Of a stretch of 64,000 nt of DNA, positions 3,591 to 57,499 are shown in pieces. The notes under the pieces are model-generated. The model had not been told where the DNA came from, did not search any database, and saw nothing but the letters and a program-made list of their open reading frames with translations. The DNA lies in assembly GCA_036172245.1 (NCBI GenBank), contig JAYWIR010000018.1, forward strand, positions 558,001-622,000. The letters are read 5' to 3'. The position numbers were made by a program, and so were the translations under genes. Every line of letters begins with the position of its first letter. The first letter of the stretch is position 1. This DNA comes from Raillietiella orientalis. Taxonomy: Eukaryota.

Positions 3591-4599
3591 AGGACTTTCA
3601 CATCAGCCGCACCGGTACGTGGCGGCGGCTGATGTGAAAGTCAGTCCCCCAGGGAGAAAAAGTCCCCACACACAGAGACAACGACACGCAAACACAAAGA
3701 CTGCAACTATCGCCGTCTCTTTCCTTCGGACCTTGGATAACAGTGGCAGCGGCATTTTTTTCCTCTTTAGAGGTGACTGACTACGACGCGTCGACACCAC
3801 TTCCCGGGTGATGTCCTAGCCGCATTCGCTGTGGCTGCCTAGCCTCCAACGCGGCGCTCGCTACCCGTAAGGTAAAACCGGAACGCCCCTACCGTACAGT
3901 GGAGGAGAGATAAAGAGGAGAGAATGTGTGAGAAGGAGAAAGGGGGGAGGGAAGATGCGTCTTGCACTGCAGGGTTTCCGAGCTCAAGTTTCCAGGCTTT
4001 TCATAAAGAACGGATTGGACTCCGCCGATTGCTCTCGAACGCGCACCTAAGCGCCGCCGCGCAACACGTACGCGCGCTTCAGTCCAGCGAGGGCGCTGCG
4101 CTTCCTCGCAACAACGGCGACAGCGGGTCTTGGGTTCCACGGCTTTCCTGCCACCCGCAAGGGTCTCTTGGACGACAGTCTGAGAAACCTGCGCGCAGCT
4201 CTCTTTTTTTTTGGTTCTTCGTCTTCGTATTCCCGCTGGTAGGTGAAGAAGGCGAGGGAGGGAAGGCGGCGCGATCCACGGGGAAGGAGGATACGGGGAG
4301 AGAGATTGGGCGAAGGAAGGAAGGTGACAAGGACCCTTCTTTCCTTGCGTGGGGTATTGCGCGCATTCCCCGGCGGCGGTTCCTGCCGCTCTTGCTAGTG
4401 GGTTCCCCTCCTCCTTCGGAAAGAAAGCCACTTGTACCAACGGGTTTCAGGCGGCCATCCAGTGGCTCACTCTCCTATTCCTGTTCCCTCCATCCCGAGC
4501 TCGAAGCGATTTTACCTGGTGGATCCCGCAAGGCGACGCGGAATGGGTACTTCCGTAGACGGGAATGCGAAACGCGCCGCGCCGGCATGCCTCCCGTAG

Positions 4600-5332
4600 C
4601 GGATGAGAGGAACCTCCCTGCAAGATGCGAGAGCTGATGCTCCGCCAGCTGGCGTCGCCGCCAAGAAGAGGGAGAGGGAGGAGGTGTTTCTTCTCCTCCT
4701 CCTCTGAGCGATCACCTGGGCTGCTCCCGTTTCCGGGGCGACTCCACTGCAGTCGAAAAGGCTTCTCCACCGGCCAGGAGGAGACCACAATACGCAGGTC
4801 TATCTCTCTCCTCGGGGGATGCGAGGAGGAGCGAGTGGAAGGGGCGGAGAAAGGTTGCTACGGAAAAGTCCCGGGAATCCTGGGGAGGGTGCGTTTTCTC
4901 CGGAAGAGTGAGTGCGTGGTGGCAAAAGGAAGACGCGGGCAGGTCGACGGGGGAGCGAGGAAGGACGTGCGGATGACGCGAAAGTCCGAGAGAGCCCGCG
5001 CGGCGGCGGCGGCAGTGACCAAAGCGGAGAGACTTCGCCCTTTCCTCGTCCGGCGTCTCGGGAGGCGACGCGCGCGCTGCCGCCGCCGCCGCTGTCTCCC
5101 GGGCCGGCTTGATTGATTGAGGCGGCGGGGACGGGAAGCTGGGGAATGCGGCGATTCCCGCGTCGGCGCTTCCTGGAGGCAAGCGACGGCGGCTTCCCTC
5201 CTTTTGTCCTTCCCCCCTCCTCCCCCCGCTTCCTCGATCTTTCCAGGGTACTTTCAGCCGATCCCGTCAGCTGCGCGGCAGCTCTTGCCAGGGGCTACCG
5301 GGAGGAAACGGAGGAAAGCCCTTTGACAGGGG

Positions 5333-5366
<34 letters not shown>

Positions 5367-7550
5367 AACTCCCCCCCCCCCAATCTTCCTCCCATCCCCT
5401 TCTTTTACGATTTCACCCCCTCCCCCCTCCATCTTCTTCCTAGGAAAGCAGGAGCTGGCGTTCCCGCAATGTCGGCGGCCTTTCTGGGCCGGCGGGTGGA
5501 CGCGCCGGAGATGGACGTTCCCTCGAACGCGGACCCCGGCGACGGACGGAGTCGGTCGCGTCGCCTTCCGGTCGAGCGAGCACGCGACAGCTCATGCGGG
5601 GGAGCAGAGAGAGGGAGAGAGAGAAAAGGAGAGAAAGAAGGTGGGGGAGGGCGTGGGTGGGGGAAAGGAGGGGCTAGAACCCACCCGTCCGCTGCGGAAA
5701 CACATGGAGGAGCAGGGTCAAGCGACGGTCTGCGGAGGGAGGGGAGGGAGGGAGGAGGAGGAGGAGGAGGAGTAGGGAGGGAATGAAGTCTCGTCTCCGA
5801 CCCGATGGAGAGGGAAGGACGAGAGGCTTCGGAGACGGCGGCAGTTCCCTCCTCCCCCTTCCCTCTTCTGAATTCCCCCGCGCGGCGGCGAGTCATGTCG
5901 AAAGACCACGCTCTGGAGGGGGGAGGGCGGGGGGGGAGGAGGGGAAGGAGAAGGCGGACCGTACACGTGCGAGTGAGCGCCCCCGTGCGTCTTCCGCGAC
6001 GCGTAACGAGGGGGCGGAGGTTAGCGGGGGAGGTACAGGTTCGTTCGTCCGCCTTCTACCTTCCTCCGGGTGCGCGCGTGCGCCCGCCGGCGGCTTTCGC
6101 GCCGATTTGCGTCTCGACTTGCCGCGTTGCGGGTCGGCCTGCTGCGTCCGCCGCCGCCGCCGCCGCCGCCGCGCGTTTTTCCGCATGAATGAGGGGAGAG
6201 GGGGAGGGCGGAGGTCCCCAAAGGTAAACCCGCGGCGGCGGGCTGCGTAGTTCAACAATGACTTCCCGCTCGAGGCGCCGCCGCCACCTATGTCCTTGGG
6301 TCGGCGGATACGCCGCCAGCAGTCGTGCCGGGCGTGCAAACTCCGTCATCGCGCGGGGCGACGAGAGCAAACGCGGCCGCCGCAGGAAGCACGAAGGGGA
6401 GGGAAGGCGATTGTTCGCCGTCTCCGCCGCTGCCGTTGCGTAGGTGATAGGGAGGAGAGAGAGAGAGGGAAAAACGCGCCTTCCCTTCTTGCGAAAATCG
6501 GCTTCCCGTCGGAAGTCCCGTCGCCCGGTGTCGCAAGCGGACGCTCTCCCTCTCTCCCTCGCATGGCAAACGTCGGATGTCCGAAGTGGATGCCGACGTC
6601 CACGTCGTCGTGCGCTCTTGGCGGCGGCGGTGGTGGTCCTGTTTTTCGTCTACGGAGCGCGCGCGCGCCGGCTTGCGTGTAATGTATCCGCCTGGTCCGC
6701 GCAAGTTGCGGGCACCTGTTGCACGCGCGCGCGCAAACGCACGGGAAGGGGGCGGGGGAGGGGGGGGGGACGCAGCGCCTCTCCTGCCTGCGGTCGGGTG
6801 CCATCGGCGCGGCAAGCACGCTGCCTCCATTGAGGGAAACGAGCTGCTGCAGAGGCGCTGCTCTCCTCCGCCAGAGCACCCGAGAGCGATGCAGTGCCTC
6901 CGCTTGCCTGCCTCCCTGGAGGCCGTCGAAGGAAGCTCTCTCCCTGGAGACGGAGTGCGCGCGCGCGACCGGAGGATTATCGATCCTTCCGTGGTACCGC
7001 GCGCTCGTTCGTGCGCGAACGCAGAGATCTGCCTCCTTGCAGGGATGCGGCTCGCTCGCGGCTGCTTCCTCTTCCCTTGCTGCCTTAGGACTTGCTTCCT
7101 CCCCCCCTGCGATTCGAAAGAGCAAGCGGCTACTAGGAGACAGCTCAGCGGAACGGAAAGCTCCAAGAGTTGGAAAGCGGGGGGGGGGGGGGGGAGCAGG
7201 GAGAAGTGGCTGGAAGCGCCTTCTCGTTCGGCCGGGGCAATGCCAGAGGAAAGATTGCGAGCACCGAGCCAGGCTTGCCCCTTTCTGCTTCGGAGGTTTT
7301 TTCTTTCACGGTGGAAGCCAGGCGGGTGAGCGGAGGAGGAGGAGGAGGAGAGGCTCATTCTTAGCGGCATCTCCGCGACATGCTTTGCCGCCAGAGGAGA
7401 TTCGTGGATCCGTCGGCGCACGCGCGAAGGAGGTGGGAGAGAGGCGGGGGGAGGGGGGGGGGGAAGCGTCTGCTCCACGCCATCGTAGGTGCGTGTTTCC
7501 AAAGCATCGCACTCCACCGCCCTTCAACGAAAAGTGACTGGCGTTCCCAG
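4600..7550. other. Very GC/CpG-rich low-complexity island with G-tracts, (GCC)n, (GGA)n and a long poly-A
   Basis: Dense CpG; (GCC)n at ~6148-6172, (GGA)n at ~5751-5772, poly-A at 5333-5360, G-runs at 5917-5944, 6742-6769 and 7179-7195. Confidence 0.7.
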
Positions 7551-8049
7551 GTCGACGGGTAGAAAACACACACAAAACGTGTGTGTCTGAGAGCACAGGC
7601 GACGAGATGGAGGTGGAAGCTGACGGGCGAACAAGAAGGAAAGGACAGCCCAACGGCGAGGGCCAGGGAGCAGGGCCCTTTCGTTCGTGCTCCCGCTGGC
7701 GAACAGAGGGCCGCCGTTCGGCGATGGTGATCTGACTATGCATTCTTGACAAGGGCGACCACTTGACGTCCGCCTGTGACGTATGAAGCGGCTTTCTTTT
7801 CCTTGTGCGATCTCCCCGCTTCTCCGCCATGAAGGGTCATTAACGGATTATCATTCGTCACTCTTTCCGACCCGACGGGCCCGCTGAACCACGCGGACGC
7901 AAAGCACAGGCTCACCTCGAATTCTAATCAGCTACGGATGTGACTGATCCGTCGGCCTCTCCCGATCGGTCGCCTGGAGGGATTTCTCGAAATCTTGGGT
8001 CACGGAGTACAAGAATTCTGATGCGGCGCGCCTCTCAGGGATGCGCTCG

Positions 8050-8212
8050 AGAGGGAGCCGGGAACCCGCTCCTGATTGATCTCCCATCGGTACCATGAGA
8101 GCAGGAATGCGGGAAAAAAAGGACAAAACCGTCGCGATGGCCGCGCAGGGTGATCATGGCACGCTGCCGGGGCAACCGTCGCGAGTCATTGTTACGCGCC
8201 CGGCGCACGAAC
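8050..8212 (-). repeat. ~160-bp repeat, inverted partner of 3434-3590
   Basis: Reverse-complement alignment by eye; the ORF track also shows parallel translations (LPRQ..AMITLRGH). Confidence 0.8.
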
Positions 8213-9399
8213 GAACGCCGAGCGACGTGTGCACAGTGCAAACAATGGCGGCGACATTTCAGGGTTTACGAGTGTTTTTTGTTTGCGTTTCTGGAACTGG
8301 TGGTCTCAGGTTCCCTCGAAGCCAAGACTGGGCATATAGCGGGATCCAGAGCAAACAAGCGATAAAAAAAAAAAAAAAGAAGAAAAAAGAATGCAAAACA
8401 ACAGGAAGCGCAACGTTGTGTGATGCCAGCTGGTATCAATCTGCCATCGCGTGATTGCATCGTCGTGCGGCACCGCGCGCTCCGTGTCGAGGAGGAAGCT
8501 CCTCTGGTCCAGCGTACCAGGTTCGCACACACGCTGGCTGTCTTTGCTGTCTGCCTGTAGGAACTCTGTGGAACTTGGTGCGTTGCCTAGCGAAACGCAC
8601 GCGAGATGATGCTGGGGACAAGAAAAGTTCACACCGTCAGCGTTCCCAGGTGGTGTGTGGATGATTCCGTATGGTCGCCCGGCGTGCGCGGTTTTCGCGG
8701 CCAGTGCGCCTCTGATGCTGGCGGACATCCCTCCAATTTCTTTGCTGGTGAGCAAGAAGCGGTCGGATGCCGTCGGATGGAATCTGGAGCGCATCCCAAA
8801 CGCGTAACTCCGCCAGCGAGACTCTGAGGAAGTCCTTGTCTGCTCCAATAGCACGCCGTCGGAAGGCGTTTAGACTGCAGGCGGAGACAGAAGACGGACA
8901 AAAGGGGCCACTTTGGGACTGAAGACGAGGAGAGGAGGAAGGATTTGTTTTTGTTTTTTCAATTTACATTTATTTTTTTATGATGCATTCCTGTTTTCCA
9001 TCGTTGGGCTTTATCTCGACGCCGTCTTCTGCGATCCACCGCCTCGTATGAATGAAGGTGACCTTGCGTGTTGCAGGAGACGACTCTGCCCTTTCAGCGA
9101 GCCGCCCCTTTGTGGAAATCACCGTCCGAGAGAACTGAAACGTGCAAAAAAAAAAAAAGAAAAAAAGAAAAAAAAGAAAGGGGAACAACGGGCACAAGGC
9201 ATCGCTGGATGATGCGGCGTTGGTGCAGGGCAATGCTATGCTCTGTCGACGACCCCGAGCACGCTTTCTGCGCTTCCCCTCGCGCGTCCCTTCTAGGTTC
9301 CCCGTAGACAGGAACTCCTCAGCTACGAGCGGCGCGGGCGGGGAAAAGAGGCTGACTAGATGGAAGCGCGAGGGGCACAACGAGAAAGTAGCCTCCGTC

Positions 9400-11400
9400 G
9401 CCCACGGGACCAGGGCCTATTGAGGTTCCGAACTAGATCGTCTCGCGACCCGTGGTTCCCGTGGGAGGCGGAGGAAAGGGAAGAGGGAAATGGGCGCAGG
9501 GTTCCATCTGTCCCCGAGATCAGGCGGTAACCAGGTAACCGCGGAAAAGCTAACTGACCCACACTTCTGGGGAGGAGAAAAATACGGCTGGCCGCCCGAA
9601 GGTGGGATCAAAAAAAGGCGAGTCGCGTTTGCCCTTCTGCATGGGGGAGAGGAGAAGAAAACCTGGTACGGGACCTGTCCGGCTGGAGAGATTGCGAGGA
9701 ACCCTACGAGGGCTCCAGGCAACAGGAAACAGGATTGCCCCCAGCGGGTGCTTCGCGCGCACCGTCGTCTCCGGCAGCGCCCACCTTCACAGACGGTTGG
9801 TCGTGGCAAGGCGCCACGCCGAAATGAATAGCTGCCGCCGGCTCCTCGGTCCCCGGAGGAGTATGTCTCGTCACGTGGCACCTTTTATGCATTTCTTCCT
9901 GCTCGTTTTCGTCGCCCTTGCTTCCCGAAGACGCTCCCTGTGCATCTGGATGCCGCCGCTTGAACGGGCGGGAAGCTCAGCCGCCTGCTGCCGAGGGGAA
10001 GGAAGTTTAGGGAGATAGGAAGAAGGCCAAGGGTCACTCCTCGTCCTCGTCCGGTGAGCAAGAACGTTCCGAGCCGCGCCCTCCGGGCGCCTCTCCACAG
10101 TGTGTCTATTCGGCATCCTTACGCTAGACTAACGCCTCAGGGCAGAATGTCCCTATGCGCCTTGACCCGGAAGCGGCGAGTTTGCGGAAAGTTGCTGCGA
10201 GCGCCGACTAGCGAGGGAGATGCGCGGCCAGGAGGAGGGGGAGCGGGACGCCCTTCACCAACACGAGGCCCTGGGGGAAGGTGGGATCCTAAGGAGTAGG
10301 CCGGTGGTGAAAAGTGGTGACAGGCGCCTCCTGGAACGAGATGCGGTATTTCTCCCTGAACTCACTCGCCCCTTTCCGGAAAGGTGAAGGGGCCTTCGAT
10401 CCCGAAGGGGAGACATCGGCCCTTTCCAGCCTTCCCGAGATGTTCCTCTGATAGCCTTATAAGCGGCAGCTGTCGGGTGCAACGCCAAGACAGGACGGCC
10501 CGCCCTCCAAGCTCCGCTCACCCTCGAGAGCTTCTGGTCCGTCTCTGGAGCGCCGGAGGAGTCCTGGCGTCCGTTTTCCCAGTGCTTTTTCTCCGGTGAA
10601 CTGGCGACGTCCCGCTCACGGTGCATCCCAAAGGGAGGGGTAACAAAAGGAATGCTGGGAGGCAACGCTCGCTTCCCCATCCTCGTGCCAACGAGAGCAG
10701 GTGGCTCCCATAACCCCCTCCCTAGGGAAGGTGGCACTGCGTGATCTTGGAGGCAGCGCTGTTGAGCTTCCCGTTCCTGATGCCTCCCCTTCCGGGGTGC
10801 TACCAGCGCAGCTCCTCCTCCCGCCTTCGCTCCCATCGGTCCTGTTGCCCCGCCCCGCAGTTCTCGTGATTTCTCGACCCCACCCACCTCTGCGCGCCCT
10901 TCCCCGGAGGGCGTTCCCGACCATCCGCTATTTTAAGAATGCCTAGCCGTGTATCTGTGGAACTGTCCAGAGTTGCCCCGCACGCCTTCCCGGATACACC
11001 TCCCTGGAGCGCCACCCGCCTGAGGTTCGAGATCCGGATCCTCGGAGAGCGTCCCAACCTATGGCGCCGTCGCTACGCCCACTCCCCGCCCTCCCCTGGG
11101 AGGAGCGACCGCCCCACACCTCCGGGTTCGGTTTCGCTGGAGGGCGGGGAGAAAAGAGCGCTTGAGCTCTGCAGCGGGAAATCTCGGCGGCACCACCTCG
11201 TTCCCAGCGCCCAGTGCTGGATCCTCCTGGAGTCTTACCTCAACACGAGGGGAGAGTGGGATAATGCTTGGCGGTGGCAACAAGAACATAAGGATCCCAG
11301 ATAGGTCCGAAAGGAAGGGAAGGCATGCTGACGTGACACCCGAGGCAAAGGTCAGCAGGAGTAGGCGCGACTCCCGGACTGCGACTCACAGGATAGACTC
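9400..11400 (+). mobile_element. Possible heavily decayed LINE ORF2 relic
   Basis: Weak motifs in plausible order: RRVAFALL (APE-like), IPKGRHRP (RT start-like), LWRRRYAHSPP / LCSGKSRRHHLV (zinc-finger region-like). Confidence 0.3.
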
Positions 11401-12094
11401 CTTTAGGCAGTGTTGCCCATGACAGAGCGGGAGAAATATTCTTCAATGGTCTTCCTGACAAAAGGAAGCACCGAAAACGAGATACTCGCGACTGCTGAAG
11501 GTGCGTAACGCTCGGAGAGACGCCGGAGGGGTGTGTTGCCATTAAAATATCCGCCTCCGTCGCTCTCCATGCTATTCCTTCAGCCTTCGCGCCGGCCGCT
11601 TCTTCCTTCTCCCTTGGCACTCCTCTCTCTCCGAAAAATAGACGGCGGCCCATCAGCAGCCGAATTCCCTCCAAAGCAATCTGCGAAGTGATACCTTCTA
11701 TGCATGTCGCGTAGCAACCGCTGTCGTGCACCGAACCGAACCGAACGTGGGGTAACGGAGAGCTGCAGCGGCGGGTTGAGACGGCGGCAGTGGCCGAAGC
11801 GTGCAACTCCAACGAGAAGGTGCTGCCATCTCCACGCGCGCATGGGAGTTCAGACTTCCTCGTTGATTCTGCCGTCACAAGGAGTCGCGAAAGCGGTAGG
11901 AGGCCTGCGAGCCCCCTGGAGAGCTTACACGCCAGCACGCCTACTAACAACGCCAAAGACTCTCTCATTTCCCGGAACGGGAACCGCCGCCGCAACAGCA
12001 CCCTACCCCTCTCTCTGCGGGCTGGCAGGCAGCCAAAAGGAAGACGCACAGCAGCGGACGGCGCCGGACGCCTCCATGTCTTTCAACCGTTCGC

Positions 12095-12100
12095 TTTATT
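12095..12100 (-). promoter_or_regulatory. Candidate polyadenylation signal of aPKC
   Basis: AATAAA on the minus strand about 240 nt downstream of the stop codon, in otherwise GC-rich sequence. Confidence 0.5.
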
Positions 12101-12336
12101 TCTCACTGCTGCCGCAGGTTGGCACTTTGCAGGCTGGAGCGAAAATGGGGGCCGAGGAAGAAAAGATGCACATGGGAGGAAGGTGGGCCGCGTGAGTGAC
12201 ACGCATGCCTGGAAGTGGGCCAAAACGAGGGCTACGAGGAGGATGCGGGAGGATGTTTTGCCGGCCTTCTGCTGCAAGGGGCGGTGGCTGCCTCGTCTAA
12301 ACAAAGGGACCACTCCGACACTCAGAAGGCCTCCGG

Positions 12337-26673
<14,337 letters not shown>

Positions 26674-29045
26674 TTTTGTGATTGACAGGATAAAAAGCAA
26701 ACTGGTATGCTGATTCCCATTGAGGTCCTCGTCCATACATACACTACATTTCCGAGCGGGGCTACCCTAAAAATTGGTGCACAGTTAATACTACACACTG
26801 GCCACTTACACTGCTTTCCAGTTCAAATAATCAGACCACAGTATTAACAACCTGACCCATCTCAAGAGTGCATATTATCGCTCATTCCTCAAGTTCAGAA
26901 CCTTGTTTCATCCACTCACATTTAGCTTTTGCTGTCAAATAATGTGTTAATCAAGAAATATTTCAGTCAATAAAATAAAAATGGTTAACCAATGCTTCTT
27001 GTTAAACAGATAATAAATGTTTTTGAAGTGTCATATGCCAGAGTTCTTTCAGAGATCCGATACCACATTAGCATACAAAGCACAACTACAATACTTTAGT
27101 TTAACACAAACACACACACAAAAACCGCTTTGGCAGCATCAGATGCCATATCTCAATAAGCCTCAGTCAAGAGTTTTTGCCACACCTGTATTAGTATTAG
27201 TAATTCGTCCTTGCGATCTTTGGAAAAAAGGGATCCTGCATGTAAAGGATCAAATCTCTTACTTTTCCACTTACTTGGGTATCGAACTCTTGTGTCCAAA
27301 CGCCCCAGGCTACACAAATACCAACAGAATTCCTTGAGATTTGATCGCAACTTAATAACAATCGGGTATCAATCGTTCTACTACTACTAATTTGCACAGC
27401 ATCAAACGGCTGCAGAATATCTAAAGCGGGTCACACGCAAACCTGGTGTGTACAAGGTACAAACAAGGCTCGTGTTGTTTTCTCCATGGACGCTGAAAAA
27501 TACAAATTAATTGCTTAATTTCCATCTTCAATTCCCAATTCTCCATGGACGCTCATTCTCGAAACACACAAAAGGCACCGAGCTGGCACGTTTCAAATTA
27601 GGGAAGATTTGGCGAAATTAGGAAAGAAACACACATCCAGCAGTTGTCAGCTTGAATGTATAATTACCTTAGCGATCCTTTACCCACCTTTGACCACGCC
27701 CACAATTAAAAGTGTAAGTAAATTGTACAAATCAATGGCAAAAAATATCGGTTCGTGAGCCATAACAGAGTCGCCACACTACGCTTACGCAACTTGGGAT
27801 GCTGGGAACTGGACAATGTGTACCGGTTAAATCCGTCCGCCAAAAGGGGAAAATTAATCCTTCATACATAATGAAGAATATTGTTCCATACCAAATTTTT
27901 GAAAACTGCTCCAAATATAATCCATTTGAAAAGAAAGAAGGTCACTAAATTTGGAGATCTCTCTCGGCTCACAGCAAGCCATATTTTAAAGTTTTCTCTT
28001 GAAGCAAAGTAGGAGAAAATTCTGAAATTAAGTTAGCAGGGACATAATTTTATTTATAGTGGAAAGAATGATGAAGAGCCATTTTGAGAATTAATCTGTA
28101 ATTTCTGGAATAATTTGCAACAATAGGTTGCCATTAAGTTCATGATCTCATTTTCATTTTTAGATATCGAAATGTTTGGATACATGGCAAGTACAAAGGT
28201 TCTTTATACAGATCATCTAGCATGTTGGCAGCGAAGTTCAATCATCAAAGATTCTAGTATTCTATATGGACCGCTGACATATGGAACTACTGATTTCTAG
28301 GATCTCTTAAATAGTTTGAAGAAAACGCTTGCATGACGACTTCTGTAATCGCTATCTCGGTCTAAAGACCGCAAAATTATTCACTACATGGCATTTTATG
28401 GGCAAGAATTCCTCATATTACGGTATTGCTTTTATTTACTAACTTGTTGTTGCACATCACTTTGAAGGTAAGTCCGAGAGGCTGCCAGCATTTGGAGTCT
28501 AGATTTAGCTGTAGCCGATCAAATCATAAGCGACTCGTAGCACTAAAGGAAACCCTTGAGCTTCTCACTGCTCCTTTTAGTCTGACAAAATCTAGCTTAT
28601 GAATCTGTATCATCGACTGAATGGAAGCAAATTTCAGGGATGAGGAATCAATCCCTGACATCCTCGACGAAAAAACAACAAAGATATGGGATAAAGATTG
28701 AGGACATCCAGAAATTGGCTCATCTTTCTCCCTAGTCTTTACTTGTGATCCCCCAATAACTGCAAATCAATTCTGAGTAACAAACCTTAAGACTAGTTTT
28801 ATTTCTAACACTCTAATACTCTATTTTCTATTATTATGCAAAAACAAAATTCCCCTTATGTTAGGCAGCGTAAACAGCGATTTGCTTGTTTCAGGGTAGT
28901 TAGAGCTTCGAGGATTTACAAGACCAGATGCTGGAACATCCAACTTAGTGCTCCATGGTGACCACAGCACACTACAGTGTTTTGTTTGGAGCACCTGCTG
29001 TTAACAGCACCTCACAGAACCAATGGTTGCGATGCTGCCAATAAC

Positions 29046-29143
29046 GGGGAAACGAAATTTCACGAGGGGCGAACCTTCCTTTCGCACTGCGTTGACCGGC
29101 CAGCACGCCGCTGTACGCCGGGCGTGAGGTGGGAGCTGCTGGG
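29046..29143 (+). repeat. ~100-bp dispersed direct repeat, copy 1
   Basis: Matches 31644-31742 with a few differences. Confidence 0.9.
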
Positions 29144-31643: not shown

Positions 31644-31742
31644 GGGGAAACAAAATTTCACGAGTGGCGAACCTTCCTTTGGCACTGCGTTGACCGGCCA
31701 GCACGCCGTTGTACGCCGGGCAGTGAGGTGGGGGCTGCTGGG
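31644..31742 (+). repeat. ~100-bp dispersed direct repeat, copy 2
   Basis: Matches 29046-29143. Confidence 0.9.
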
Positions 31743-31779
31743 CCCTTTGGGTCGGCGATCTCGCCGACCCAAAGGGCAT

Positions 31780-33000
31780 CAGTTTTATCACCCAGTCATG
31801 CCAGGATGTTTATTATGAAAAATAAGTACACATGTGTAGGGTCATCGGCACTACATCATCCTTAAATGCTCGGAACCTGCCGAGTAACTTGCACACAGGC
31901 TAGCGAGGTTCGCCTCGGCTACGGAGGAGGAGGAAGGAAGAGGAAAACAAAAATAAAAATAAAAATCCATAATAAAAAAACTCTGAGGGACACAAGAAGG
32001 GATCACTGTCTGGTGGAGGGCGTCCTCCTCATCCTTTCCAGGATGCCGGCAAGTTCCATCCGTGTATGCCTCAGGTGAGGACCATCTTGCTGCCGTCCGC
32101 AGGAAGCGCAGGGCGAAGCAGATGAAGTCCCTATCATGCCATGCTCCTCTAGTATAGCTCCAGGCTGACACAATCCCAGATAGGCAGCAGCAAAGAGCTG
32201 CTGGGGATGCGGCAATAGAAGGGGCATCGCAAACGAAGAGGCGCTTCATCAGGTCCCTGGGATTGTCCGTCGGTGCACCAAGGGTCGTTGCGTAACGCAT
32301 CCACAAAGGCCGGAGGGCAACACAGTCTACAAGAAGGTGCGGGAGGGTTTCCCGTTCCTCGCACCTGCGACAGTTGGGGTCCATAGCCTCCCGGGTCTAG
32401 TGAGACCGGCGTGCGTTCCACGGGATACCCCAGTGCAACAGCAGAAGTGCCGACTACTGCCACTTCAGGGTGAGAACCCAGTTGTTGTTTAGGGTCGGGG
32501 GCCACTCGAGGTCTTCCTGTGGGATTCCCAGCAGCTCACTCCATCGAATAGTCCTTTCGGTGGGGGACTTGGGGTCGCAGCTGCCGTGATCTGGTCCGTG
32601 GTTCTAGTTCTTTCGTCTTCTGACTGATTTCGCAACTGACGTCCCATTTGGACAGCTGGTTATTGCCCGGGTGCTTCCTGAAGGAGGACAGTGCTGCAGC
32701 TGAGAAGGTTCTTTGCGCCTGCGCACACGTGGTGAGCTGCACGACGATGCCTTGCAGCGAGTGGTTGTTGTAGGAGGAAGTGCAGTAGTCGCTTCTGCTT
32801 CTCTGGGCTTGCTTTGTTGTTCTTGGTCCATGTGTTAACGATTTCCTGCAACCAGGCACTACCGTTCGCAAACCGGCAGAAGATCTATTCTCTCTTTTGA
32901 AGGGTATCGGAAGACTCTGGAGGCGTACTCCGGTCGGGGGAGTCTTGGTCAGCCAGCCAGGGAGGGTATTGAGGGGCTGTCCGTAGAGTGATAGGAGGGA
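31780..33000 (-). mobile_element. 3' fragment of the same LINE family (CCHC zinc finger, T-rich 3' UTR, AATAAA)
   Basis: DPNCRRCEERETLPHLLVDCVALRPLW; ELAGILERM C-terminus; 3' UTR alignable to 39560-39840 and 43930-44200. Confidence 0.8.
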
Positions 33001-38699: not shown

Positions 38700-39840
38700 A
38701 CAGAGGAAGAGAAAACAGGTGGGAGCAGACGAACACAACAAAGCATCTGGGCTCTTGGCTGCAGGGAGTCCGTTTTCGGATGAGGTAAAATCAACGCCAC
38801 GAGTGGGGCAGAGTGCATCTGCCTACGAAATAGCAGATACTCTCGCCAGCTGCTGAAGGAGATCCTGGGTGACTCAGTAATCTGCTTTGGGAGTCTTTCA
38901 CTCCCCTGGCCCCAGTGCTACCATCCCTACGGGAAGCAAGGGACTGATAGTACACGTCACCTTCCGGAAAGGTGGCGTGCACTATCGAAAATAGAAGAAA
39001 ACATCTAAATGCGTGGACAACTCGGGAGCTAACAGATGCTGCCACCCCGAGTGTCCCTCTAAAAGGACTGCTACGGTGGAGAGAGCTACTAGAAATTCCT
39101 CCGGAGGAGAGGTACAGTGGTCCCTAGCGTGCTGAGTCAGTGCAACCTTTTCCCTAAAGTAGAGGGAGTCGGTGATCCTTCTGTTGCATTGGGACTTCCC
39201 GTGCAAACGCCTGCCGACACCATTGGACCCGGGGGAGTGTGATCCCCAACTGCAGCAGGTGTGGCGAAAGAGAGTCCCTCCTCACCTGCTCGTGGATTGT
39301 GTGGCCCTCCGCTCCATGTGGGGACGCTTTGCCGTGTCCCTGCGGAAATCCGAGGGCAACCCTAGGAACCTCCTGAAGCGCCTCTTCCAGCACGATGTCC
39401 TCGCGCCGGACGCATCCCTAGCAGTACTCCGCTGCCTAGGCGGGACCGTGGCGACGCAAGAGAAGGCCAGGACGACAGGGACGGCATCTATTTTGCTATC
39501 CTCTTCATGAGGATAGCGTCAAGATGGCCCTATCTGGGAACCTTAAAACAGGAAATTGCCGGCATCCTGCAAAGGATGCAGAGGACGCCCTCCAGCACCT
39601 GGTGATCCCTTCCCGAACCCTCCCAATTTTTTTTTGTACATTTGTACAAAAAAAATTTTGTTTTCTTTTTCTTTTTTTTGTTTGCCCCCCTCCCCCTCAG
39701 CTGTCGAGGCGAACCTCGCCGGTCTGCGTGCCGGCACATGGCAGGTTCCTTTTAGTATATTTATAACGTGGCAGGACCAAGCGTCCTGACACTGACCTGT
39801 ATGTTTATTTTTTATATAAATAAACGCTCCGGTGCAACCA
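38700..39840 (+). mobile_element. LINE 3' fragment (plus strand), tail-to-tail with the 39950-42960 copy
   Basis: PHLLVDCVALRSMW...PRNLLKRLF; GILQRM; T-rich UTR; AATAAA at ~39818. Confidence 0.78.
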
Positions 39841-42962: not shown

Positions 42963-43113
42963 GCCACGGAAAGCATTTCTGGACGCGACGTTTTGCTCCG
43001 GTCCGCGCTGCAGCGGAGCATTCTATTGGCACTTTTGAGTCTGTGGCTCAGATGAACCCACTGCTCTGCGAGGATGTGAATGCGGGCAAAGACGGTTCCT
43101 CCTCTTCCATCGA
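42963..43113 (+). repeat. ~150-bp repeat, inverted relative to 45712-45872
   Basis: The core GGCACTTTTGAGTCTGTGGCTCAGATGAACCCACTGCTCTGCGAGGA is present in reverse complement at ~45750-45797. Confidence 0.9.
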
Positions 43114-43929
43114 CAGCAACTAAATAAACAAGGGTCTTATATTTAGTTGCTGTCTCCTCCCTCCCGTTCTGAACTTTTCCCGGTGTTCAGGAAGGAACAG
43201 GAAGGGCTAAAGACTGGGCCCCTGCCCTCCACTCCATTCCTTTTCTTTGATTTCTGTTTATCATCCCTGCACATCCGTTCTGGGCTTCTGGAGTGACCAC
43301 CTGCGTGTCGGTGCTCCCTCCCTACGAATATCTTGCTACTCTGTTGAGGAACTTGGTGGTTCCCAACATGTTTATCTATCGAATAAACGCCCCGGCGTGA
43401 TGTGACTATGAATCTCTGCAGTATCCTCCACTGAGACCTCGTGAGTCTCTCAGGGGAACACCGGATCGATGAATCGGAGGGCAGTGGTTACTCCTCGCCT
43501 CTTGCTGTCATCTCGCAGCCCTCCGTCCTTCCGACAGACCACGCGTGCTCGACGGCAGGCGGCGAGTTCCTGCATTATTTCTGGGAAGAAAGCGCTTCGG
43601 TTCCCGATTGATAGTCAGGCGGGAGACTCATTGAGAAAGGGCAAGTGGAAGGATAGGCACTTCCTTCTTTTCCTTCTCTCACCCTGATTCCTCTTCCGGA
43701 GTGCTGGACCTTCTCAGTCGATGGTCCCTGCATCCTTTCGCCTTACACGAGGGAACATCCCTTTGTTGGGGAGATGCATTCCTCCTCTCTGCTTTCGGTG
43801 AGCCCGTCCGGGATCAGGCACGAGCGTGAACAGGACGAAGTCGAAGATAGTTCCTGTGGGTGCAGAGTGTACAGGACGTCCGGAATGGATCCAATCGAGG
43901 ATCCCCGTGGGCAGCACGGTCAAAGACTT

Positions 43930-45315: not shown

Positions 45316-45711
45316 ATCTCGAGAACTCCATCCAAGGAGGAAGACCCCTTCTGCTCCTGAAGAGATATTTTCATTGGCAGCCAGCCATTCTCGAAATCAC
45401 GCGAGAGATGCGTTTCGCATGTAAGCTGTATCTGCTCTCTCTCCAGCTGGGATGGGTCTCCATCCGGCTACCTCAGCAGCTGGAGGTGGAAACTTTGGAA
45501 TTGATTTGGTTCTGTGGTGGTTCCTGTCTCCCTCTCTCCCCCTTCCCGGTATCTCCCTCCTCTTCACGCAACTTTAAAGCTAGGAATGTACAGTTCTGGT
45601 CCTGGACCTCCGTATTTCTATCCCGCGTTCGCAACGCCCTCATGTCCCGGGGAAGAGTCCCCTGTCTTGTTCAGGATCTCTGCCAATTCTTCAGCCTCAA
45701 CTAGCGCGAGA

Positions 45712-45872
45712 TCGATGGAAGAGGCGGAACCGTATTTGCCCGCATTCACGTCCTCGCAGAGCAGTGGGTTCATCTGAGCCACAGACTCAAAAGTGCCAGT
45801 AGAGTGCTCTACTGCAGCGCGGACCGGAGTAAAACGTCGCGTCTTCGTGCGTCCAGAAATGGTTCCCGTGGC
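45712..45872 (-). repeat. ~150-bp repeat, inverted partner of 42963-43113
   Basis: Reverse-complement match with one ~10-nt indel. Confidence 0.9.
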
Positions 45873-47229
45873 TCCTTCGCAGCCCTGTCCGCAATTAAAC
45901 AACATGCTGAACAAAGAAGACAATATAAACAATTGAATCCCGGGAAGAACTTCCAATCAAGTGATCGGCAGGCGAAGGTCAAAGGAAAGAATGGACGCCA
46001 AGCGAAAAAGACCCATACTCCAGAGCAGCACTTTCGAGGAGGAATACCGGTCTGGCCGGGGCAGTAGCCACATCGTTCTCTTTCTTCCTCTCTCTGCAGA
46101 AAACACACCGCCGGAGGCGACCTGTGGCATTCCCGTCCTTCTCAACGGGCTGTCCACCGAGATCCCCGGGGGTGGACGCACCGAGGGGCGGGATCGCCCC
46201 GGGCTGCAGCTGGGAGCTCCCTTCTCCGGTGCATGCGGAGCCAGGGAAGCACCCTCCAAGAAGTGTGGAAGGAAAGGGGGTGGGATAGGGGAAAAGTTCC
46301 TATCTCCCCCTGCCCTCCTCTTCTAATCCTCCTCCTTTTCCCCGAAAAAATTTTCCCCGGCCTGTCCTCTCCATTGATGCGGTGTCGATCCAAATCCCAA
46401 AAGATCCTGATGAGTAAACATACAGGCTTATTCTACACGGATCAGTATACAAAGGTTTATTTTAACATACATAGTTTAATTCATATTTATCAACAGTAAT
46501 ATCATTGGGACAGGTACATTTATCAAGATTCAATGACATACATTCCATTTATATGATTGATAATTTCTTGATTATGTTGTTGATATACATATATGTACAT
46601 TAAAGATTATAAAATACAAGTATACATTCTTATTATATTTCTTCATATAAACATAAATATATGAATTAATGTGTATCATGAAGATTATAAAAAAATAAGT
46701 TGCATTTATTCCGACCTCTGGACTCTGGAAGCCAGGAACGGCTCCGTTCCGGTGGTTGGATGCAGGCAAGGGACCCTTGAGGGTCACCAGCCTTGGGACC
46801 GGTCGCTTCGGCGGAGAGTCGTTGACGGAGCTGAGGATTCCGGTTTCCACGACTGTCGCCGTCCTGCTGCCCACAGGAACCAGTGCCCCTGCGCGAGATT
46901 TGATGAGCATCGCACCAGGCCCACCGCACCCCAACGTGTATCGCGTCCGCGGAAGACATCGGTTCCGCCTACCTCCCCTGGTGGTGCTCGCGGATCCGAC
47001 AGCCCGCGCTTCAGTGTTCGAGCAACTTACCCCCCTCCCTCCACACACACTTAAAACTCGGGAATAGGTGGAGGTCATTCCAACCCCGAGACCTCTGATC
47101 ATTCACTTCACCGGAAGGGATGAGCTCTCCATCCGCTTCCTCGAGAGGCAGCCATCCGGAGGGAAACTTCGAAGGGAACCAGCAGATGTCGAACCGAATC
47201 TGCAGAAGAATCGTTACTACCCGCGTTGG

Positions 47230-48010
47230 AGTTTTTGCGGCTGCGGTGTCGCCTCGCGTGGCACCGAGCGTTGAGGGTTCGAATCCCTCCCGGAGAAGGA
47301 AGCATCGACGTCAGGAACGGAGGGTGCGTCGTGGGTTTCGAGTTCCTCCCCCTTCCCAGCAGGATGACGCTGGTGGGCCTGTGGGCTCCGGGTGCGGCAC
47401 TGGTCGAAGCCAGAAACCCCCGGATGCCCTCGTTGAGTGACCAGGACTGGCAGTGGACACTCCGGGGTCCTTCCAGGAACCCAAGAGTCGGTTCCCTCTG
47501 AGGTTCTCTTCCGGTTGTGAAAACGGGGCCTCCATCGAGTACCATGGAGCTAGTGGATTGATGATGCCTCTCCAGAGAGCCAAGAAGTGCTCTGCTCCCT
47601 TCGGGAAGCGACCCCTCCAGAGGAAATTGGAAAGCGTCCCTTCGGGGCTCTCTTCAGAGGAGGAAACCAGGAGAGACTGGGTGGGTTTCCCTTGCTTGTG
47701 GGTTCCCTCCGGAAAAGAAGTTCCAGGAGCGGGGGATCCTTTCCTGGTTCCCTTCGGAGAAGAAAACGATAAGCGATCCCCTCCGTCGGGTTTCTCCGGA
47801 GAGAATGAGAAAACAGTTCCCTTCGAGGTTCCCTATCAAGGGAAAGGAACGGAGTCCTTTCTCCGATACCGTTCCTGGATTCATAGGGTGGTCCCCTCCC
47901 GGGGCACCCCCTATCCGGAAGAGTTGACAGGCACCCTTGGGTGGCGTGGGACAGCGTCAAGGAGATCAGCGGGCGGCGTTCTTCAGCACTTGGCGGGACA
48001 AAGAAAAAAA
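47230..48010 (+). mobile_element. tRNA-headed SINE-like repeat, copy 2
   Basis: Perfect B box GGTTCGAATCCC at 47276-47287; body homologous to the reverse complement of 51570-52330; ends in AAAGAAAAAAA. Confidence 0.6.
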
Positions 48011-48025
48011 TAACCATCTGACAAT

Positions 48026-48085
48026 AATCCTTCGTGCCTCCCCGTCACTCCTTAGGGAAGGAGTGACGGGGAGGCACGAAGGATT
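48026..48085. repeat. Perfect hairpin, 28-bp arms, 4-nt loop
   Basis: AATCCTTCGTGCCTCCCCGTCACTCCTT-AGGG-AAGGAGTGACGGGGAGGCACGAAGGATT. Confidence 0.97.
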
Positions 48086-49104: not shown

Positions 49105-49190
49105 AAACCCGCAGGCACAGCGTTTTGCATTGAGACGTCCGACGCGGGCTATCTCCTATGATGAGAACAACTCAAACAGAGTTGATGGAA
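49105..49190 (-). repeat. Fragment matching the 5' leader of the SINE-like repeat
   Basis: CCCGCAGGCACAG.GTTTTGC.TTGAG...AACAGAGTTGATGGA is shared with 52365-52450. Confidence 0.6.
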
Positions 49191-51569: not shown

Positions 51570-52450
51570 TTTCTTTCCTGTCTTGGCAGTTCTTCGACAC
51601 GGTTCCACGCCACCCGAGGGTCGGTAATTCTTCAAGATAGGGGGCACCTCGGGAGGAGTCCGCCCTATGAATCCAGAGAGGACTCGGAGTCCGTTCCTCT
51701 CACACCTGGGGAGGGATCCCCGGAAATGGAGATCACCTCCACCCTGGTTGTCTCTGATGGGGAATCCAAAAGGGAATCTCCTTCCTTATTCTCTCCGGAG
51801 GACCCCCGGGGGAATCCGCTCCATTTTTTCCTCTCTAAAGGGAACCCGGAAAGGATCCGCTCCTGGAATTTCTTCTCCGGAGGGATCCCCCACAAGGGAC
51901 CCGCTCCTGTTCTAACTCCTCTGAAGAGGACCCAGAAGGGACGCTTCCGAAATTCAGAAGGACGCAGCTTCCCCGGAGGGATCGGCTCGTTTTTCTGCAC
52001 TCTCAGGAGAGGTGGTGGCGACACACCTACTCCATCAGTATGACTTGGAGGGTCCTCCCGTAATGTAGGGTTCGCTCCTTCACAAACGGAGGGGAGCTCC
52101 CACTCCTTGGATTCCTGGAAGGACCCCAGGGTCGACTCCCATTTGTCCCGGCCCTCGTCGGGGGCATCCGGTTTTGACCGCTACCAGTGTCGCACCCGGA
52201 TGAATGCAGGCTAACCAGCGTCATCTTGTGGGAGGGGGAACTCGAACCCACGACGCACTGCCCCGTCGGTTCAGTCCGGGGTATTCGAACCCGCGACGCT
52301 TGGTGGTGCCACGCGCGGAGACCGCCGTAACCACACGGCCTCCGACGCCAGCGACGCTCGGTAGCCCGCAGGCACAGAGTTTTGCGTTGAGCTACCACCC
52401 GGTGCGGACCATCTCCTGTGGCGCGAACAGCTCGAACAGAGTTGATGGAC
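51570..52450 (-). mobile_element. tRNA-headed SINE-like repeat, most complete copy (~880 bp)
   Basis: Minus strand GGCCGTGTGGTTACGGCG (A-box/D-arm-like, cf. tRNA-Ser/Leu TGGCCGAGTGGTTAAGGCG), GGTTCGAATACC and GGTTCGAGTTCC (B-box-like), A-rich end; alignable to 44655-45315 and 47230-48010. Confidence 0.6.
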
Positions 52451-55400
52451 TTAGGAAGACTTTGGAATTAAATCCTTTAATCAATTTGTCGACATCCGTA
52501 ATTGAGTGATCCAAGGTTTTTCTGCACAATTAATCGATGCGTCGATGCCTGTTTGTTGATTCTCGAAGATGCACTTTTCAGTTTCCATGTAGTTAGCCAC
52601 AGACGTACACGCGAACAAAGATGTAGGTTTGTTTCAAGGACGTTGAAAGGATCAAAAGTTCAAAACTGTGCTTGCAGCATTTTCCTTAACTGTTCCATCT
52701 CAGATACGGTTCAGATTCCGGCACTTTTTTTGTTGTGCTTCGAATGGAAACACGGTGAGGATCGGGAAAGTTCCGAAGATGAAATCGTTGACCACGGAAA
52801 GCCTTGACCCATCGACATGGAAGTTTGATGTGATTTCGATAAATACTCAAATGCACGACTGGCAGAAAACTGCCTCATCACATTTGCAAAAAATCGTGAA
52901 ATCTGAAGAAAAAAGAGATCTTCAACTTTCGAAAGGGTTGAAAATCCAACGAATGCCGGAAACGAATGGGGTAGTTTAAATTTGTTTTAGAATTCACCGA
53001 AAATAGCGTCCATGTTTTTTATCCATAGAAGGCCAACAGACTACTTGACTAAGAAATAGTATGGCTGAATACGGGGGAAGGGGAGGGGGGGAAGACTGCT
53101 AAATGAATCAATATCGATAGTGAGTACAATAAAGGGATATGGATTTTGGCATCGATTCAATTTCGACCATCCATGAATATTTTAATTCTATACGGGATTT
53201 ATTTCAGAATGTCATGCCACGGGAGCTGCATAATGGACGGTGCGGTAGCACTTGAGGAAAGTTTGGATTTCAAGAGATTCGGGAATGAAAGCCCGCCGCT
53301 TATATACATAGTGAACTTAAGTCACTTCGTCACCCAAGTTGTACGCGTGCACAAATGACCTTTGTGATCACATAGGAAATTCCTGCATACATGCACGTGC
53401 CTTGAAAAAAAAAAAAAAAAAAAAAAAAAAAACATCCCAAGGATTGTACGAGGAAAATGAATAAACAAACAAACTTTTGCTGCCGAGTGATGGCAAACAT
53501 TCGCAACTCTGATGGAAGAACGAACAACTTGGAATGTGATTTCACTCGCATGCGAGCTGCATCCTTTACGATCCTTAATAGGTGCATTTCTTATTCCTTT
53601 ACCCACGCAATGCTCTTTTAAAAAGCTTTATGTGTAGTATTCATCTTGGAGGCAAGGACATGGTCCCAGTATGTCCGTCCAGCAACAGGGATCAATTGGA
53701 CAGGAGTAATCGTACGAACAAGCTTGAAGCTGACTATTTCGAGACAGGTGCACACGGGCATACTGTACAGAGACAATCATGCCCGTTGCAAAATTAAGAA
53801 GAAAAAAAAACTGTCGTCCCCCTGCCTCTCCCCAAAATAAAGGAAAAGAAATGGAAGAAAAAAAAAAAAAAAACTGTCTTCCAGGAAGCAAACTTTTAAG
53901 GAGGAGAAAGAGAGGACCAGTTCTCTCACGGTCTCACGGAAAGAAAATACGCCTCCTTTCTTCGGACAACTCTTTTCTTTTTGTTTGAGGAACATGTGCA
54001 TCCCTCGTCGCAATTGATACATTAAACGAAATAGCATTGAAAATGCAAAACCTGCAGGTGTAAAAAAAAGAAGAAAAATAGAAATAAAAGCGCGCACCTG
54101 CACATACAGGAAAAAGATGGGACCAGATAAGGAGACCACGGAAGACTAAACTAGACGACCTGAAAATTAAAAAAAAAACCGGCATGTGGTCATTTGATTT
54201 GGGATGGCTCTGCGTGGGTGAGGTAAAATGAAGTACTTTTTGGTACCAAAATAAGTACATGTGTATACGAGAATCTTGCTTGCGAATACGAGGGTGTAAC
54301 ACGAGTAACGACGAGAAAGATACCTGAAGCCAGGTACAGATGAAATCCATGCATCCCACATCGTGGACAGATGGGGGGGAAACGGTGCATCGAAACACGC
54401 ATCCGGACGGAGGAGATTGCAGCATCGGCCTTGGCAACCTCTCCCATCGAAGTCGTCGCAGCTCTTCACGACTTCCACATTTCCCGTCAGCGGGGAAGGA
54501 AGACCGCCTGCGTCGAGAACTCGAAACTTGCAGCTGGACGGCTTTCGCCAGGCAGCATCCACAAATTCTGTCTTTGGATCTCAGCGTACAGCCGATGGTT
54601 TGCGAGCGGGCGCGGGAAAGTTTTGTTTTTTCTTGCCGGACCTCGAAGAAGCCAGCCCGTGTTCGCATCTGCACAGAGGCGCCGGTGACCTGAGAGCACC
54701 GAAGCAGAAGTCCTCCGCGGAACGAAGAATGAGGCTGTCCCTCCTTGGTTGCCGGGCGGGAGGGTGCCGCCCGCGGGTGGTGTCCACGCTGACCTGCATC
54801 GACGCTCGAGGTACGAATACCGAGCGAAAGATGTCCGTTGCACCCATTCCTCCTTGGTTTCCTAAACGAAATATCTGAAGGGGAGAGCATTCATGGGGTG
54901 GGGACAGTCCAGGTCTCCGTGACACGGAAGACCCACGTAGCCGGACCGAGGTGAGGACGAGCTACTGGTCCAATGAAGCCTCCAGCTTGACCAAGACTGC
55001 ATATGTCTGAATCGAACTCTTGCAGGATCAGCTCTGGTCATAACGGCATCCGAAGATTTTCATTTCTTTTCCAAGCAGCAGCCCGTTCGAAATGGAATTG
55101 CATCCCTACCACGGGAAATGAAAAGGACGACTCCAGACGTTCGAAACAGATGCCCATCATCAACAATTGGTATCCTTAGGTTTCGAAAGGAGGGCTGACT
55201 ATAACACACACACACACACACACACAAATAGAAAAACCAACATCCCCGATTTGCATTTCATCTGGACCACCTGGTTTCGTGACAACATTTTTCGTTTCGT
55301 TCCTGCAAGGCTCCAGGAACGAAACGCGTGCAGCGCCATGTGCTTTCGTGCTCATGCTTCGCGGCGCAGTTGCCACACGAGGCGCAAATTCGAGTCCGAC

Positions 55401-57499
55401 TTCTTCAGCAACCCATCAGCCTTCTCCTCCTTCTTCTGAACCTTTATCCAGGAACCTATCCCGATTTTCCGTTCGATCCCCTGGGACAGTGGGAAGACGA
55501 CCATCGAGAGAGGGTGGTCCTTTCTGAGGCCTTCCTGTCTGGCACTCCTGCGCTGTGCAATCGAGCGCAGCCCCCGTCGGTCGCCCTTCCCCGCCCCGTT
55601 TCTCCTCCCTCTTCCCCCACTTTGGAGCGTGGGGAGTCCTCTGTGGGCACATCGTGGGGACGGTGACGGGAGCGCCCTACCTTCTTTGCCGCGCCCGCCA
55701 TCTCGACCGAGAATGTCGTAGGCCGATAGAAGGGGCTCCCGGTAGCATTCAAGGGGTCGTCGGGGAAGGAGAGGGTGGCTGGGGCTGCGGGACTGCCTCC
55801 TTCGACCCTGCTCAAACCGGAGGAAGCTTCGTAGAAAGGCAGGCAGGAGCGAGGAGGGGGAGGAGTCTCTCCGTTGCCATGGTCTTCCTCAGCAGCGGCG
55901 GGATAGGGAGGAGCGGGAGAGCTCCTGGAATCCCGAAGAGAGAGAGGGACCTTTAGCTCCTCCGTTGCTTGCTTCCCGATCCGCCAGCATCCCTCTTCAC
56001 CGGCTCCCAGCAGCTTTATCAAGGACACGAGGACCACGTCCCGACCCACGCTGCAGAGAATATCCGTTGTCACTGAAAGGGCTGAGACGAAGGAAGAGGA
56101 AGGAGCTGTTTTTTTCTAGGCAAAGATTATGGAGGGCTGAGACTCCTACATGTTGCTCCCGTAGAAAGCAGGGATCTCTTTCCATCCTTTCGTTAGGATG
56201 TGTGTGTGGGGGGGGAGAGGGGGAGGAGCTTGGCTCACTTCTTTCTCGTTCTCCGTCTCTCTCCTGTTGGTGAATGCAACTTTGGCGCAGGCAGGAAACG
56301 AGAGAGCCAACTTCCGACTCGAGAATCTGGGACGGCATTGCTTGCGTGACGAAAGTGCAGCGGAAAGCTCACGTGACCTTAAAAAAAAAGGAGGGGGGGA
56401 ATATGCATCTGGAGAGCAAAAAAGGGAACAAAAAAAAAAAAAAAAAACGAAAAGAAAAGAAAAAGAAAAAGAAAATGTCACATGATTAACCCTGTGGATG
56501 CAAGGACGGAATGTGCGAAAGTCCATCATCGACCCTTCTCCCCGTTGCGTTGCCTAGCGCGCGGGTTGCGTCAGCATCGCGTCTCGCGAACGAAGGCAGT
56601 GCTGCCAATAGGATGGATCGGTATTTTTTAATATCGGTTCTGAAAGCCAAAGGGTGCTTTTTTTTTCTTTTTTTTCCTGGATTCCATCAAAGAAGCTTCG
56701 CCTCATCGTCAGCATCCTATTAATATGCATATTAATAGGACGCCTGCGTTTCCTGCAGTGTGGCGCGAACCGAGTGAGACGGTGCCGTGGCGGACGACAG
56801 TAAGAAAGCAAACAAACAAACAAACAAAAAAGGGATCGGAAATAGAGTAGCCCAGAACTACGACGAATCTTCACGGCAGCCTGCGTGCCCATTTTTCCAA
56901 AGCAATGCAATGGAACCCCGAATTTTTGTGAATCATTTTTTCTGCTGTGCACGCTGCCCAGCTTGGATACGGCTCTTGGATATGAGGACGCACTCAACGA
57001 CGCACCCGTGGCGGCGCACGAGCGCACCTGAGAAACGCTTGGAAGTCCAAATTAGCCTCTTTGCAATTGCGTTCCCGGAGAGTCTGGTGGGGAGAGCCTC
57101 TTTTTGGAGGAGGAAGTCGTTCCTTGTGACTCCGCGCTCGCCCCCGTGTTTGGGGACCGGGGAACTTCCGGCGTTCCCTTGAATTCCAGGTGGGTTCGTT
57201 GCCATGCTGCCGGTGAAATTGCCTCCAACGCCGCTCGCATGTTCTTCCCGACCGACCGCAAAGGGGCCCGTGAGGTTGCGCCGCCCCTGTCCCTCACTAG
57301 ACCTTGGGCGTTGTAGCTTTGCTATCTTCCTCTTCTCACCCCAACTAGTTTCTCGGAAGCGCTGGGCACGTTCCGAAGGAAGTTGCCGACCCCCAAATTT
57401 TTCTTTACCTCGAGATTCCAGATGCGATGCGCGTCCCTCCTCGTGTGCCGCGTTCGGGTCCACCACTTCCGGAGGACTCGCTCGACCGGGATGCGACTG

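Follow-up and report, generated by a model that had tools for sequence, protein, structure and literature searches.

Perfect hairpins in the Raillietiella orientalis genome as probable scars of germline template switching

Introduction

Perfect inverted repeats arise in one step in the four-point model of short-range template switches, whose events fall into classes such as '3-1-2-4' (Loytynoja and Goldman 2017, PMC5453318). Short orientation-reversing switches are described as frequent in human and yeast (10.1101/2020.03.06.980458), and the template-switch process has already been described in human, ape and yeast genomes. Related products are the snap-back insertions of SD-MMEJ and polymerase theta (PMC5728401, PMC5068794), the multi-template germline templated insertions described for MMBIR (PMC8421209) and the snap-back 5′ junctions of R2 (PMC11371274).

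Here, we analysed the hairpins of a 64-kb stretch of one R. orientalis contig (the window), for which an earlier note had reported five perfect hairpins and two weaker ones, and compared them with these systems as far as the portions of the published accounts available to us describe them. The hairpins are a new instance of an already known process. Like four-point template switches (PMC5453318), they are perfect inverted repeats and include insertions that reverse-complement adjacent DNA as well as an apparent inverted-spacer case, the hairpin at 43112. The four-point events were called against an outgroup and return locally, whereas our knowledge of the older state is confined to hairpins within repeats, and the return point at 43112 is 2.6 kb away. 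Snap-back SD-MMEJ insertions (PMC5728401, PMC5068794) likewise show an inverted copy of a flank at the junction, and the joins here have comparable overlaps of 1–2 nt, a size common by chance, but most hairpins here have no visible junction and are known from sequence alone. With MMBIR-type insertions (PMC8421209) they share the copying of a nearby patch, a further switch and fixation in the germline; those insertions were found in human genomes from reads, whereas ours are inferred from one assembly and involve patches that are 75–94% identical. R2 snap-backs (PMC11371274) also place inverted synthesis beside a retroelement end, but at 5′ junctions of fresh insertions, whereas here two cases lie at LINE 3′ ends and 80 other such ends have none. 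A literature search for a copied patch capped by a hairpin in arthropods returned no papers, and other searches gave general mechanisms only.

In our view the hairpins most likely record template switching or snap-back that is ongoing in the germline, some few of them having formed by multi-template repair at junctions; we give this reading a probability of about 0.7. If true, template-switch mutagenesis is at work in the germline of a non-model animal.

Materials and methods

The window is G000:C18:558001-622000 of an assembly of 210 Mb in 491 contigs, and it was scanned for hairpins exhaustively. A fixed-rule sample of 740 kb was taken as 50 kb at 2.0 Mb on each of contigs 1–12 and 20 kb at 1.5 Mb on each of 7 more. 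The second sample, 177 kb, consisted of loci fetched around repeat matches, together with four that surround Ku and polymerase genes. The counts exclude low-complexity arms, which were removed beforehand; mirror repeats and shuffled sequences served as controls. The library for the junction test comprised all fetched DNA and is incomplete. As it covers only 12.5% of the 740-kb sample, the whole genome was also searched around hairpins. Two junction rules were used: a loose one, by which any repeat edge lies within 10 nt of or inside the hairpin, and one derived from the window, by which an outer edge lies at most 7 nt away.

The window has 55% GC, dropping abruptly to 33–35% at 24000–28000 (an AT-rich island). 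Protein-kinase exons near 13.9–14.2 kb (Pfam Pkinase) presumably belong to an atypical PKC, going by their motifs.

Results and discussion

Perfect hairpins exceed chance expectation

The scan recovered all five main hairpins with exact coordinates (Table 1). The earlier note had put the chance expectation of a 15-bp perfect arm with a short loop at about 0.001, which is right: 0.0011 are expected in 64 kb for arms of at least 15 bp and loops of at most 15 nt, and 0.017 for arms of at least 13 bp with the same loops. Its two weaker candidates fared differently. At 14622–14637 there is a palindrome of a kind of which about one is expected by chance, so it is no evidence for the signal. The candidate at 39625–39657 is of low complexity, yet it is an insertion relative to other LINE copies, since 39628–39655 is missing from three others aligned across it.

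Table 1. Hairpins of the window and the duplicates and repeats that adjoin them (positions are those of the window)
Feature	Position	Strand	Size or stem	Remarks
Local inverted duplicate	3431–3586	+	156 bp	75% to 8051–8215; two copies in genome
Hairpin, perfect	3593–3642		arm 18, loop 14	starts 6 nt past end of local inverted duplicate
Partner of 3431–3586	8051–8215	-		without hairpin
Palindrome	14622–14637		8+8	chance level; outside the signal
Partner of 31644–31742, putative donor	29046–29143	+		without hairpin
Direct copy	31644–31742	+	99 bp	94% of 29046–29143; last base is the hairpin's first base
Hairpin, perfect	31742–31777		arm 17, loop 2	between local copy and LINE 3′ end (6 nt off)
LINE fragment, 5′-truncated	31784–32885	-		3′ end at 31784; 74–80% to other copies
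Hairpin, low-complexity	39628–39655		arm 13, loop 2	inside LINE 3′ region; inverted insertion
Local inverted copy	42963–43113	+	151 bp	88% of 45712–45872; last 2 bases overlap hairpin's left arm
Hairpin, perfect	43112–43154		arm 15, loop 13	right arm formed by the truncated beginning of a dispersed repeat
Unclassified dispersed repeat, truncated copy	43140–43400	+		~70% to other copies, which extend leftwards
Partner of 42963–43113, putative donor	45712–45872	-		without hairpin
Dispersed repeat	47217–48023	+	~0.8 kb	A-rich end 48000–48010; SINE-like by anatomy only
Hairpin, perfect	48026–48085		arm 28, loop 4	2 nt past furthest repeat match, 15 nt past A run
Hairpin, perfect	55293–55326		arm 13, loop 8	additional to the earlier note; no repeat end near in local library
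Palindrome, perfect	56715–56740		13+13, loop 0	unique sequence; no repeat end near
Hairpin, older, decayed	57630–57679		arm 21, loop 8	2 mismatches

The excess over chance extends beyond the window. With arms of at least 14 bp and loops of at most 20 nt, the 740-kb sample held 15 inverted repeats, while mirror repeats numbered 0 and shuffles gave 0.2 each; for arms of at least 12 bp the figures were 36, 2 and 1.8. Extrapolated from the 15, the genome would hold about 4,000 perfect hairpins with arms of at least 14 bp. With 4 in 64 kb, the window does not clearly exceed the rate of the fixed-rule sample (P = 0.059), and repeat-centred loci are about three times denser than the sample (12 in 177 kb versus 15 in 740 kb; P = 0.0025). 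Total inverted-repeat density is ordinary for eukaryotes: with arms of at least 10 bp and spacers of at most 8 nt, as defined in PMC13155455, the sample has 2.42 bases per kb and is not an outlier against the mean of 1.91 given in the available part of that source, whose counting rules may differ from ours. With a density near the eukaryote mean and a process already described, the hairpins hold little surprise for a specialist.

Older states and decayed stems

For hairpins within repeats, other copies of the repeat supply the older state; those at 3593, 31742, 48026 and 56715 have no homologue. Locus L041 carries a 19-nt insertion that reverse-complements the sequence immediately preceding it and is missing from 6 other copies aligned. 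At L003, C4:10957 and window 39628, an arm has been replaced or inserted relative to other repeat copies, and the flanks are colinear. The left arm at 43112, readable as an inverted copy of the adjoining repeat, belongs with these cases. Judged by these alignments, hairpins within repeats are inverted self-copies confined to single copies of the repeat, as short-range template switching would produce. The earlier note had proposed a lineage-wide process, to be abandoned if each hairpin were a normal part of a repeat consensus. This was not so for any consensus tested, and a lineage-wide process writing inverted self-copies is supported by the genome-wide excess together with the copy-specific inverted insertions. 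Copying of the arms from a distant donor was considered and rejected, as 25 hairpins gave no above-background match within the same block.

Stems scoring at least 15 in the 740 kb comprised 10 perfect ones, 6 with one mismatch, 1 with two and 1 with four, and mirror repeats gave 0. Decayed members therefore accompany the perfect ones, a mix consistent with steady birth followed by neutral decay, and one that speaks against an artefact. In favour of fold-back during assembly or amplification, 9 of 10 stems at the repeat-centred loci are perfect, as are 4 of the 5 found in the window. We nevertheless hold such an artefact to be highly improbable: 8 of the 18 stems in the fixed-rule sample carry 1–4 mismatches, the local duplicates are only 75–94% identical to their partners, where fresh chimeras would not be diverged, and a 12-bp inverted repeat at 58939 and 63275 is common to both copies of a 98.8% duplication. 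The latter is a direct duplication of 599 bp, at 58595–59193 and 62931–63529 of the window, with the 12-bp inverted repeat in each copy.

Anatomy of the junctions in the window

The four longest hairpins of the window all lie at junctions, and three of them are found where a 99–156 bp copy of DNA 2.5–4.5 kb away comes to its end. Among the six complex window hairpins with arms of at least 12 bp, four are at junctions, against 0.23 expected. The earlier note had placed three hairpins where a dispersed repeat copy stops matching a partner that lacks the hairpin. Each of the three does adjoin the end of a copy whose partner has no hairpin, but the partners at 3593, 31742 and 43112 are not dispersed repeats. 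No third copy of any of them was found genome-wide, and they are therefore two-copy local duplications. Within each pair, the roles of donor and recipient are assigned putatively. The overlap between patch and arm amounts to 1 nt for 31742 and to 2 nt for 43112, sizes that are common by chance.

At 31742, the far side of the hairpin is occupied by a LINE with 656 candidates in the genome; the label is based on anatomy and on zf-RVT matches below the Pfam cut-off (best E 7e-5; three of six frames). The flanks of this LINE match at 9 of 11 nt, perhaps a degenerate target-site duplication, which was noticed post hoc and given no weight. At 43112, the left arm and most of the loop are an inverted reading of the dispersed repeat at 43140. 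The inverted-spacer match, made up of 7 and 3 nt with a short gap between them, is suggestive of the '3-1-2-4' class of template switches. An inverted spacer would require the opposite strand as template, so a simple fold-back would be insufficient. The proposal that a fourth hairpin follows a SINE-like tail proved sound, since 48026 starts 2 nt past a repeat with an A-rich end. Near the 56715 palindrome, no repeat end was found.

If each stem were as old as its patch, the probability of an arm still being perfect would be 0.34 at 31742, 0.14 at 43112, 0.05 at a site on contig 17 described below and 0.006 at 3593, values that are a guide only because perfect arms were selected. Given the 0.006 for a perfect arm of 18 bp next to a duplicate of 75% identity, the patch and hairpin at 3593 are probably two events or chance neighbours. 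At the ends of local duplicates and repeats, no decayed hairpins were found in addition to the perfect ones, apart from an 11-bp stem at L141 and low-complexity cases.

Junction hairpins are a minority outside the window

Against the library of fetched DNA, a repeat end adjoins two of the 15 hairpins of the fixed-rule sample and one of the 12 from the repeat-centred loci. Four of these 27 outside hairpins lie within repeats, and 20 have no detected repeat on or beside them. By the window-derived rule, 3 of 27 have an outer edge at most 7 nt from a repeat end, compared with 0.31 expected (P = 0.004); by the loose rule, enrichment outside the window is not significant (P = 0.055 and 0.58). Whole-genome searches around 11 of the 15 sample hairpins and 4 of the 8 unplaced hairpins of the loci placed only two at an edge. 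The junction share differs between the window (4/4) and the rest (3/27; Fisher P = 0.001). That hairpins sit mostly at repeat junctions, as had been stated for this DNA, describes the window well and fails as a rule for the genome. The striking pattern of the window is mostly a local extreme, with about one hairpin in ten at a repeat junction outside it. A small class of junction hairpins probably exists, and it is over-represented in the window. Some seemingly unique hairpins may sit at unseen junctions, the library being incomplete.

One outside hairpin, C1:2033859, begins exactly at a LINE 3′ end (0 nt). In the fixed-rule sample, the 19-bp hairpin at C17:1512134 lies 3 nt past a 162-bp, 86% inverted copy of DNA 8.7 kb away, of which there is no third copy. 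This repeats the build of patch plus hairpin, which is thereby seen at three sites in the window and one outside. A further case lies somewhat away from its local inverted duplicate: at L140:1950-2470, an AT-rich inverted duplicate of about 200 bp (92%, short spacer) is followed 31 nt on by an 18-bp perfect hairpin and then by a young high-copy repeat (~98% identity, 659 candidates).

Outside the window, 32 local duplicate pairs provide 128 ends, of which one has a hairpin with an arm of at least 13 bp, versus 1 of 1500 random positions and 3 of 20 local-duplicate ends within the window. The 32 pairs are local and non-dispersed, occur in both orientations and amount to about one per 23 kb in the 740 kb. 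They are mostly 40–270 bp long, 70–96% identical and 0.1–27 kb apart, and some may be paralogous exons.

Hairpins and LINE 3′ ends

Snap-back of the cDNA or the target at an insertion junction could form hairpins in the course of retrotransposition. The hairpins at 31742 and C1:2033859, 6 and 0 nt from LINE 3′ ends, would suit this origin, as would the A-rich tail before 48026 and the snap-back 5′ junctions described for R2 (PMC11371274). We examined 80 of the best 100 of 1371 matches to the LINE 3′-end motif, all perfect motif matches and all at 3′ ends. Not one of the 80 (52 distinct flanks) had an arm of at least 11 bp within 100 nt; the best arm was 10 bp, in 2 of 80, and arms of at least 11 bp occurred in 4 of 600 random stretches. 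No 3′-end hairpin was present in any of 14 copies of the LINE at 31784, the snap-backs in the published account sit at 5′ junctions, and the 20 outside hairpins with no repeat detected on or beside them also count against this origin, which we regard as very unlikely. The 0/80 means that a hairpin is not a normal product of 3′ insertion, and a normal LINE 3′-end feature was ruled out on the same figure (80 of 1371 matches). Template switching during retrotransposition, which the earlier note had offered as one possible source, accordingly finds no support as a routine source at LINE 3′ ends, the ends that were sampled systematically. A modest excess of hairpins at these ends is still conceivable.

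The flanks past the LINE 3′ motif (L152–L231) recur in classes of 11, 10 and 8 of the 80, and some match the coding part of LINEs, in one orientation or the other. The elements may thus insert sequence-specifically into further copies, or composite units may have been amplified. Among the matches listed, many perfect LINE 3′-end motifs are no more than about 50 kb from the end of a contig; contigs therefore seem to break in LINE clusters.

Functional stems and MITEs

MITEs are families with perfect terminal inverted repeats and a target-site duplication. The hairpins here share the perfect inverted repeats but have no families, no target-site duplication and almost no internal sequence. As already claimed, they have no common sequence and are not one MITE family: their arms have at most 5 nt in common, and genome searches found no second copy of any of the five main hairpins. 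A flanking target-site duplication of at least 3 nt is absent in all six window hairpins examined for it, which gave two differing 2-nt matches only. On these grounds (no multi-copy family, no duplication of at least 3 nt) a MITE was rejected.

The same absences weigh against the idea that the hairpins are stems under selection for a function, as miRNA-like or hairpin RNAs, or else tiny MITEs. All five main hairpins fold well (z -4 to -12), the one at 48026–48085 is of pre-miRNA size, and template switches can seed new miRNAs (10.1101/2023.04.19.537475). Strong folding, however, is a consequence of how the hairpins were selected, and the window gave 0 Rfam matches at gathering score, a search in which a lineage-specific miRNA would not show. 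A functional origin is thus scarcely credible for these hairpins.

End joining, template switching and a possible two-step scar

Nearly all hairpins might instead be double-strand-break scars of polymerase theta end joining (snap-back SD-MMEJ), the isolated ones being unrecognised junctions in unique DNA. Polymerase theta is present: an exon on G000:C11 has polymerase theta as its best solved-structure matches, at E 5e-29 for the exon, not the whole gene. The junction position of all four long window hairpins also favours such scars, as do the higher density in repeat-centred loci, the frequent templated insertion suggested by the 32 local duplicate pairs and the snap-back inserts described in PMC5728401 and PMC5068794. 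We think it unlikely as a general explanation. The flanks of hairpins within repeats are mostly colinear, the inverted spacer at 43112 demands an opposite-strand template instead of a simple fold-back, and snap-back is a minor share of theta products according to the S7 legend of PMC5068794. Ku is also present, with domains above cut-off at 3 places, so there is no sign of a lineage depending on alternative end joining. Loss of classical end joining as a driver was ruled out by these Ku domains (ligase IV and XRCC4 lay outside the search). For the junction subset, polymerase theta is a compatible candidate agent; the observations as a whole point to no single enzyme.

Germline template switching or snap-back, the reading we prefer, could proceed as follows. 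A growing 3′ end would leave its template and prime anew, with slight homology at most, either on its own strand (snap-back) or on the opposite one, then copy 13–30 nt backwards and rejoin. Most events would be isolated, located in unique sequence or within old repeats, and a minority (~10% outside the window) would be one step of a multi-template repair, in which the end would also have copied a 100–160 bp patch a few kb off or joined a truncated repeat. The replication or repair setting, the direction of copying, the origin of patch and hairpin in a single event and the enzyme are what we infer.

More speculatively, there may be a stereotyped two-step germline scar in this lineage: a 100–160 bp patch from 2–9 kb off, capped within a few bases by a 15–19 bp perfect fold-back, with hundreds genome-wide. 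We find this possible but doubtful. The combination occurs three times in the window and once in the 740-kb sample, and extrapolation from that one event gives a few hundred genome-wide, with very wide limits. If real, this compound scar would preserve a single repair route (nearby invasion, copying, fold-back and rejoining) as a datable fossil record, and repair activity could be dated from one assembly. It would be concentrated in repeat-dense regions and be a steady source of new stem-loops.

Inverted duplications on a larger scale were also observed in this genome. Near-perfect examples measure 10.4 kb at 99.6% (G000:C9:2002173-2032921) and at least 1.2 kb at 99.8% (C11:2000001-2028907). 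A Ku-domain exon occurs twice with identical scores, in opposite orientation and 22 kb apart (L109 and L110; G000:C5:3770343 and 3792661), and the gene probably lies within a large palindrome.
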